Source of the DNA: Escherichia coli | GTDB taxonomy: Bacteria > Pseudomonadota > Gammaproteobacteria > Enterobacterales > Enterobacteriaceae | Strand: one strand, 5' to 3' | DNA: 64,000 nt | Assembly (NCBI RefSeq): GCF_044324785.1 | Contig: NZ_CP172127.1 | Part shown: piece by piece, positions 51,319 to 51,655 of the stretch | Layout: every line of letters begins with the position of its first letter | Position numbering within the stretch: position 1 is the stretch's first letter | Notes under the pieces: model-generated | What the model saw: only the letters and a program-made list of their open reading frames with translations | Database searches by the model: none | What the model was told of the DNA's origin: nothing | Position numbers and translations under genes: made by a program

Positions 51319-51445
51319 GTCGATTAAATTGTTATATCACTACTATGCCCTTTCCAGACGGCATATAAGAGTGCAATATGTTGAGTTTTCCGAGTGAATG
51401 GTGCATTTTACTAACCGGGTCAGTTGAATGATTCAACGCAATAAA

Positions 51446-51479
51446 ACAGACTGGAATAATAAGTCTGTATTTATTATTC
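51446..51479. terminator. candidate terminator hairpin in the island between convergent genes A and C
   Basis: acagact ggaataata agtctgt followed by atttattattc; A-rich on the other side, so possibly bidirectional. Confidence 0.4.
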
Positions 51480-51655
51480 ATCGCAATCGCACTCTACGGT
51501 TTTATCCTGCTGAAATGAGACTGCTTCCAGCGGTTGTGGATTATCCCTGGGCGACAGTCATAGTCTGGTGTCAGGATTCACAAATGACCTGTTTCCTGAC
51601 ATGGATATAAACCCAACATAGAGTGCGGTAGTTAATCTGAATAATCTATAGTCGG

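Follow-up and report, generated by a model that had tools for sequence, protein, structure and literature searches.

The segment at positions 51319-51655 of the window (the whole 64,000-nucleotide (nt) stretch of an Escherichia coli chromosome analysed here, from contig NZ_CP172127.1) lies between two convergent genes, called here gene A and gene C, and raises the question of where a stretch so unlike its surroundings in composition came from and whether it does anything for the cell. The AT-rich island around it, which separates phoU from yieH, is the 'Z-locus' already known as Z5211-Z5214 (espY5 / pentapeptide gene / espY4), an alternative to the bgl operon. A first-pass annotation made from the sequence alone had singled out the raised content of guanine plus cytosine (GC) and two small hairpins in the segment, and had offered several readings: a remnant of the ancestral backbone or of another element, an unannotated small RNA, or a convergent terminator for A and C. 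The comparisons presented here indicate that the segment is very probably a non-functional composite pseudogene scar derived from yieH and cbrC and left by assembly and duplication of the island.

Origin of the segment

The rise in GC is real and sets the segment apart from the island, though the figure of about 45% first given by eye was too high. The segment is 40.4% GC, with a 100-nt core (about 51480-51580) that reaches 50-53%, against a mean of 30.5% (standard deviation, sd, 2.1; maximum 36.2%) for the remaining 337-nt intervals of the island (48400-55500), which places it about 4.8 sd above the island mean. A sensitive search of all complete E. coli genomes (28 Gb) with 51319-51655 returned 1089 full-length copies besides weaker matches. 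The 60-80% identity band held 3526 genomes, most of which matched in cbrC; a shorter match fell in yieH, and the BLASTN comparison proposed at the outset thus found similarity elsewhere, in cbrC (about 3500 E. coli genomes) and in yieH.

Positions 51433-51544 are 78% identical to annotated cbrC over 113 nt (E 4e-13 against the 28 Gb), and in translated comparison (blastx, minus strand) 51432-51542 shows 59% identity to CbrC residues 14-50, with two consecutive stops inside the alignment (E 3e-12). Comparison of 51545-51655 with K-12 cbrB and cbrC gave no significant match, and the origin of this part is seen only with E. albertii, in which the whole of 51433-51654 is colinear with cbrC from codon 50 back to codon 1 and on through the 73 nt that precede the gene (71% over 224 nt, E 2e-33). 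Taken alone, the flank at 51583-51655 reaches a local score of 21, compared to 8.1 +/- 1.3 in shuffled sequences, 0 of 1000 of which reach 21; its homology ends 1-2 nt short of the stop codon of gene C. The cbrC copy is syntenic, lying between yieH and phoU on the same strand as yieH. It retains 50 of 195 codons, and the consecutive double stop and a 1-nt deletion in the start codon are common to all six alleles examined. As judged by these alignments, 51433-51582 is a fragment of cbrC (yieJ; a colicin E2 tolerance protein of the PF03691 family) whose reading frame has been destroyed.

The remainder of the segment resembles yieH, of which an intact parent copy stands on the far side of the island. 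Positions 51226-51363 match 55587-55724 at 73% over 139 nt (E 3e-20), an alignment that spans the last 13 or so codons of yieH, its stop codon and the sequence downstream, and a 57-nt ungapped repeat in the same region (51281-51337 and 55642-55698) is 81% identical. The minus-strand translation of this 3' piece, AVWKGHSSDITI followed by the stop, corresponds to ALWKARGWNITR and the stop in YieH. The adjoining piece comes from the interior of the gene: 51370-51418 is 79.6% identical to 55972-56020 in the window's own yieH, 51370-51427 is 81% identical over 58 nt to yieH of E. albertii (E 4e-10; codons about 108-127), and blastx against a 4-protein database gave 58% identity to YieH residues 102-129 (E 1e-7). 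The majority allele of this internal piece reads VDSNGSVSKMHHSLGKLNMLH, where YieH has VVSNGPVSKMQHSLGKLNMLH. Codons about 130-208 are absent from all six alleles examined, and some 37 of 221 codons are left around this internal deletion of about 79. On this evidence 51324-51432 is regarded as a non-functional fragment of yieH (a 6-phosphogluconate phosphatase of the HAD family). With the two pseudogenes joined at about 51432/51433, and the cbrC 5' flank added, the segment appears almost entirely explained, and the suggestion of a remnant of the ancestral backbone is upheld in the form of these three pieces.

The GC bump is composition inherited from the yieH and cbrC parents and carries no functional signal, because the pseudo-cbrC, at 42.7%, equals functional cbrC (41-44% for the same 150 nt in five taxa), its substitutions relative to the consensus of functional cbrC are balanced (14 GC>AT, 17 AT>GC), and the yieH parents are at 45-53%. 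AT-biased decay as the source of the intermediate GC is ruled out for the cbrC part by the same two comparisons; in the yieH pieces, GC has fallen from the parental value to 38.5%.

The window is 100% identical to the chromosome of strain N3 (NZ_CP031609). By near-identity megablast, the 472-nt gap that contains the segment (51184-51655) is present as a single copy per genome in 1093 of 5426 complete E. coli genomes (20%), always on the chromosome. These results bear on the other half of the backbone suggestion, that the segment might come from a foreign mobile element (an insertion sequence, IS, a phage or a plasmid). It does lie in a horizontally acquired AT-rich island in which other strains carry an IS5, but it is single-copy, confined to chromosomes and to this locus, and every sub-segment matches yieH, cbrC or their flanks; neither terminal repeats nor transposase similarity were found in the segment. 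An origin in another element did not hold up and is effectively refuted; we give it next to no credence. The features that make up the scar, and those around it, are collected in Table 1.

Table 1. Features of the segment and its surroundings, in window positions
Feature	Positions	Strand	Remarks and basis
Pseudo-yieH, 3' end	51324-51363	-	Putative; kept stop codon (51324-51326) and codons about 209-221; nucleotide match to 55587-55724
Pseudo-yieH, internal piece	51364-51432	-	Putative; codons about 106-129, with codons about 130-208 (~79) deleted; nucleotide and blastx matches
Pseudo-cbrC (yieJ)	51433-51582	-	Putative; codons 50 back to 1, two in-frame stops, start broken by 1-nt deletion; blast matches, colinearity with E. 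albertii
Relic of cbrC 5' flank	51583-51654	-	Putative; E. albertii-type yieH-cbrC intergenic region, including a stretch homologous to the cbrB 3' end; E. albertii alignment
Hairpin 1 (6-bp arms)	51423-51437		GTTGAA 51423-51428 / TTCAAC 51432-51437; spans the pseudo-yieH/pseudo-cbrC junction; sequence, fold
Hairpin 2 (7-bp stem, 9-nt loop)	51446-51468		ACAGACT 51446-51452 / AGTCTGT 51462-51468; inside pseudo-cbrC; AT-rich tails on both strands
Copy of espY4-yieH intergenic region	51226-51323		Carries 64-nt hairpin 51245-51308; 80% identical to 55587-55684; part of the same duplicated block
Twin/parent copy of this region	55587-55684		Downstream of functional yieH; hairpin 55605-55669; repeats, fold
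Gene A	48640-51183	+	espY5-type 'type III effector protein'; Prokaryotic Genome Annotation Pipeline (PGAP) annotation, weak pentapeptide Pfam match; converges on spacer
Gene C	51656-52840	-	Pentapeptide-repeat protein; PGAP annotation, Pfam pentapeptide matches; stop codon abuts relic
espY4	53122-55548	+	Annotation in N3
yieH, functional	55685-56350	-	Parent of the pseudo-yieH pieces; yieH annotation in NZ_CP031609, listed open reading frame
cbrC 3'-end relic, tentative	48320-48351	-	Final ~10 codons; adjoins the REP and hairpin on the phoU side, an arrangement shared with E. albertii; colinear, ~76% over 29 nt

Constraint, small RNA and small proteins

Six diverse Z-locus alleles were aligned, and divergence was expressed as the pairwise mean: 5.2% for the segment, 4.1% for gene C, 2.3-2.7% for phoU and yieH, 8.2% for espY4 and 15.2% for gene A. 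Since the segment diverges much as gene C does, and more than the core genes, it appears from these alignments to be under no extra constraint. This bears directly on the proposal of an unannotated small regulatory RNA, in whose favour it can be said that the 472-nt gap is unannotated and contains structured elements, and that one weak sigma-70-like match occurs at 51596-51624 on the plus strand. The gap is 100% identical to that of N3, where no feature is annotated, and no annotation of the spacer was found among the matches listed in complete E. coli genomes in RefSeq. An Rfam 15 scan of 48000-56000 at E<=1, however, gave no match in the spacer, conservation is not above that of the flanking genes, and the structures are not conserved. 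Promoter-like sites occur at the frequency of shuffled sequence (8 vs. 5.7 +/- 2.2 in a consensus scan), pseudogene homology explains the whole sequence, and in O157:H7 strain EDL933 Z5212 and Z5214 of this locus were nearly silent across 11 RNA-seq conditions (PMC4048457). The small RNA is left unsupported, and we consider it very improbable. The sole Rfam match in 48000-56000 is a sub-threshold one to naRNA4 (35.4 bits vs. a gathering threshold of 59.5) at 48247-48308, in a repetitive extragenic palindromic (REP)-like element downstream of phoU that is shared with E. albertii.

A small protein has still less to recommend it. The candidates are a 49-amino acid (aa) open reading frame (ORF) with a YieH-like stretch at 51332-51481 on the minus strand and a 60-aa ORF at 51428-51610 on the plus strand. 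The shorter one begins with ATG in five of the six alleles (ATT in L006), has no internal stop in any of them and keeps VSKMHHSLGKLN unchanged; but the window and O145 alleles differ at 13 of its 49 residues, so that almost all of their nucleotide differences change the protein, and it joins an out-of-frame fragment of cbrC to 24 codons of yieH. The longer one has no start codon in four of the six alleles. That either is a functional gene is scarcely credible.

It appears that the segment now does nothing specific and is probably 3'-untranslated or intergenic DNA between the convergent genes A and C. It may yet serve as a 3'-untranslated region or as a terminator, which would count against a scar wholly without function.

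The two small hairpins and the neighboring 64-nt hairpin

Both of the small hairpins reported in the first-pass annotation are present where it placed them. Their interpretation as a functional bidirectional intrinsic terminator for A and C has several points in its favour. The 71-nt stretch 51415-51485 folds at -15.9 kcal/mol on the plus strand (z -2.6) and at -17.0 kcal/mol on the minus strand (z -3.3), beating dinucleotide shuffles on both; hairpin 2 with its tail reaches -10.6 kcal/mol (z -4.2) and is followed by ATTTATTATTC, the run after the stem reading AUUUAUUAUU on the plus strand and UUUUAUUG on the minus strand. As with Rho-independent terminators between convergent genes, stem-loops and T- or A-rich runs lie between convergent ORFs; unlike such terminators, the stems here are short and AT-rich (3 of 7 pairs are G-C in hairpin 2, 2 of 6 in hairpin 1) and belong to only about 3.5% of alleles. 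The tails of hairpin 2 are of mixed A and U, and, though its fold is better than that of shuffles, a consensus terminator scan called neither small hairpin, the sole call in 50900-52000 being at 51253-51272.

The distribution of the hairpins also tells against the terminator. Of the 1093 island genomes, 38 have the hairpin-bearing 71-mer at >=99% identity, while 1040 carry a version about 87-89% identical to it. This majority allele (about 95%) folds, in register, at -7.0 kcal/mol. It has TTTGAATCAACCAAC at hairpin 1, which breaks the stem and is closer to yieH, and the same is true of four of the five other alleles in the alignment; in those four, non-compensatory mismatches at 51447 and 51464 disrupt hairpin 2 too, and in alignments the stem of hairpin 2 is absent from functional cbrC of both K-12 and E. 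albertii. At the junction the majority allele is the nearer to yieH (VDSNGSVSKM... vs. VVSNGPVSKM... in YieH), and its base at 51464 is that of functional cbrC; for these reasons the N3 clade is taken to have gained hairpin 1, and one or more of the arm changes of hairpin 2, as derived states.

Eight substitutions within 51418-51464 (47 nt) separate the N3 type from the majority allele and together create both hairpins, lowering the minimum free energy from -7.0 to -15.9 kcal/mol. Random sets of eight substitutions in the majority allele reached the N3 stability in 8 of 1500 trials, a figure that favours the terminator but is post hoc, the region having been picked for its hairpins. The cluster could reflect a template-switch (quasi-palindrome) mutation, selection or chance.

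A much stronger and conserved hairpin lies 140-200 nt away, nearer the stop codon of gene A. This element, at 51245-51308, folds at -32.5 kcal/mol (z -4.8), and its twin at 55605-55669 at -34.7 kcal/mol (z -4.9); each Z-locus genome has exactly two copies, both in the island, and other E. coli genomes have none. On the minus strand CUUUUUCG comes after copy 1, and on the plus strand copy 1 stands 62 nt past the gene A stop. Inherited together with the yieH fragment, it is a likelier candidate than the two small hairpins for the point at which gene C transcription would terminate, and it may serve gene A as well. With the small hairpins disrupted in about 95% of the island genomes and this better candidate beside them, the convergent terminator does not stand as a general function of the segment, and we regard it as unlikely that the small hairpins act as one at all.

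Proposed assembly of the scar

Pseudogenes at the junctions of segmental (tandem) duplications, and gene remnants at the borders of genomic islands, form a well-known class. The scar resembles junction pseudogenes of this kind in being two truncated genes fused head to tail, with stops and deletions and with intermediate composition. On the minus strand the chromosome has yieH and then cbrC, whereas the scar has the 5' part of cbrC followed by the 3' part of yieH, and it is this reversal of order that leads us to read the join as a duplication junction. The direct repeats between the two espY units are all spaced 4360-4484 nt apart, and the block they share begins about 150 nt before the espY genes (48488 = 52972), takes in the genes and the hairpin and reaches into yieH. 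The pentamer TGCGT is present in both parents within a few nt of the cbrC/yieH breakpoint, although its register fits uncleanly.

The starting point would have been a locus of the order adeP-yieH-(short spacer)-cbrC-phoU, as in present-day E. albertii. E. albertii, Escherichia sp. E1V33 and Pseudocitrobacter all have adeP-yieH-(about 200 nt)-cbrC-phoU without the island, the spacer being 197 nt in E. albertii. The relic is colinear with this arrangement in E. albertii and E1V33 (locus type V in the available part of Sankar et al. 2009, PMC2646131), which differ in that their cbrC is intact (195 codons) and the espY and pentapeptide genes are absent. Into such a locus a cassette [hairpin-espY-C] would have been inserted between yieH and cbrC. 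A duplication of about 4.4-4.6 kb, with end points near yieH codon 106 and cbrC codon 50, would then have given the second espY copy (gene A), brought in the 3' part of yieH and formed the cbrC/yieH junction, and later deletions would have taken away the remainder.

The left side of the island may point the same way. In K-12-type strains the phoU-yieH site is occupied by bglGFBH-yieL-yieK-cbrC-cbrB. In the 3' end of phoU, the REP-like element and the small hairpin past phoU, the window follows E. albertii rather than K-12; the last phoU codons end in GATAGCGACAAATAA in K-12 and in GACCCGAAAGAGTAA in the window and E. albertii (48216-48235 vs. L003 3299-3318), and the bgl-island junction of K-12-type strains appears from this to lie inside the phoU 3' end. 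Because these features are of the E. albertii type and the tentative relic of the cbrC 3' end adjoins them, the comparison suggests that assembly of the island took place in an E. albertii-like locus without bgl, and that bgl was not replaced in the process.

Several observations weigh against this history. The significance of the cbrC 3' relic is weak, since 17 of 1000 shuffles reach its score in comparison with K-12 and 87 of 1000 in comparison with E. albertii. An intermediate, with espY4 and C beside an intact cbrC, was not found in the 5426 complete E. coli genomes (C in 1099, the spacer in 1093) or among homologues of C. Homology between the espY units stops at 48488/52972, without the leftward extension toward gene C expected of a simple tandem duplication, and in the 136 nt between that point and the tentative cbrC 3' relic (48352-48487) no similarity could be detected to cbrC, cbrB, gene C, yieH or the K-12 phoU-bglG spacer; a stretch with no detectable origin is not predicted by a simple tandem duplication plus one deletion. 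Unlike a simple duplication junction, moreover, the scar lacks the expected second gene C and the full cbrC, so that at least one further deletion has to be assumed, and the paralogues are more diverged than the scar. Gene A and espY4 share 34% identity in aa and 53% in nt, with 42% at third codon positions, whereas the non-coding twins are 60-80% identical. Either the effectors evolve unusually fast, or the espY copies are older than, or of other origin than, the yieH fragment.

Further information comes from a divergent lineage. The sole distant homologue of gene C (P0059), at 71% aa identity, is found in a genome labelled E. coli (L019, GCA_032693325.1). Its flanks are only 92-96% identical to K-12, and on that account it probably belongs to a cryptic Escherichia lineage. 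In its locus (about 9190-10370) phoU is followed by the same left flank and by 0.76 kb from the interior of gene A, fused directly to pseudo-cbrC; C, an espY4-like gene and yieH come next. The join falls at about window position 51436 (the correspondence being 48527 / 49547-50327 / 51436), there is an extra 70-nt deletion between CTGTTTCC direct repeats, and the L019 deletion ends within about 5 nt of the E. coli pseudo-yieH/pseudo-cbrC junction. Since so divergent a genome carries the same truncation, the loss of cbrC beyond codon 50 or so seems to be old. L019 was considered as an evolutionary intermediate and rejected, being a further-deleted derivative.

The scar may in this way be a datable record of an island assembled, by cassette insertion and a duplication of about 4.5 kb, in a bgl-less yieH-cbrC-phoU locus before the split from at least one cryptic Escherichia lineage, with the hairpins of the 38 genomes perhaps a newborn bidirectional terminator. 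We put this fuller account forward tentatively, as a possibility that falls somewhat short of an even chance.

The surrounding island

In N3 the gene order is pstSCAB-phoU, gene A, gene C, espY4, yieH and then adeP. The island matches Z5211-Z5214 as described in the available part of Sankar et al. 2009 (PMC2646131) in its phoU-yieH site, in its GC content of about 30% and in having two paralogues of about 800 aa (espY5'/Z5214 and espY4) that flank one gene; Z5214 is espY5' (PMC4048457). That part of the paper describes the Z-locus (bgl/Z locus type III; O157:H7, phylogroup D) as four ORFans that 'presumably replaced' bgl. It also gives a frequency of about 19% of strains, close to the 20% (1093 of 5426 genomes) found here.

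Strain MS14387 (L004, NZ_LR130564, locus 1825-5577) has an IS5 between the 5' part of gene A and the 3' part of espY4. Both the spacer and gene C are deleted in this strain and are therefore dispensable. A 21-nt motif, AAAATGAGCGATTTTTTACAG, occurs upstream of both espY genes, in direct orientation at 48522-48542 and 53006-53026, and in inverted orientation at 52900-52920, where the promoters of C and espY4 diverge; a common regulator may bind to this motif.

Gene A is highly variable, with a mean allelic divergence of 15% (up to 22.6%) among six E. coli strains, vs. 4-5% for the spacer and gene C. In N3 a frameshift affects its 5' end, and in O145:H28 a stop codon interrupts it. Such variation suggests that gene A evolves very fast, is decaying or recombines with other espY paralogues. 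Just past its stop codon, 34 nt of its 3' coding sequence recur as a direct repeat (51055-51088 / 51184-51217, 88% identical), and in this region four of the five other alleles have a 41-nt gap and another position for the gene A stop.

Significance of the scar

The island itself is known, and relics at island borders and duplication junctions are familiar; the fragments described here are an unannotated case, an ordinary scar of modest evolutionary value that alters the current understanding of no mechanism. According to the available part of Sankar et al. 2009 (PMC2646131), K-12, S. flexneri and E. albertii are the only ones to have yieJ (cbrC); no description of cbrC or yieH fragments inside the island was found there, and the word 'remnant' is absent from that text. 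The fragments are unannotated in the RefSeq records sampled, and nothing else on them was found in the literature. Pseudo-yieH and pseudo-cbrC could be marked in the annotation of some 1090 complete E. coli genomes. In an AT-rich island, a rise in GC accompanied by hairpins resembled a small RNA or a terminator, and decayed gene fragments explain the rise.

For the biology of the Z-locus, the scar indicates that part of yieH came in with the second espY copy, as is characteristic of a duplication junction, and it offers neutral sequence as a yardstick for the very fast divergence of the espY effectors. It also links the Z5211-Z5214 island, earlier seen as ORFans that 'presumably replaced' bgl (in the same available part of PMC2646131), to an ancestral cbrC-bearing locus like that of E. 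albertii.

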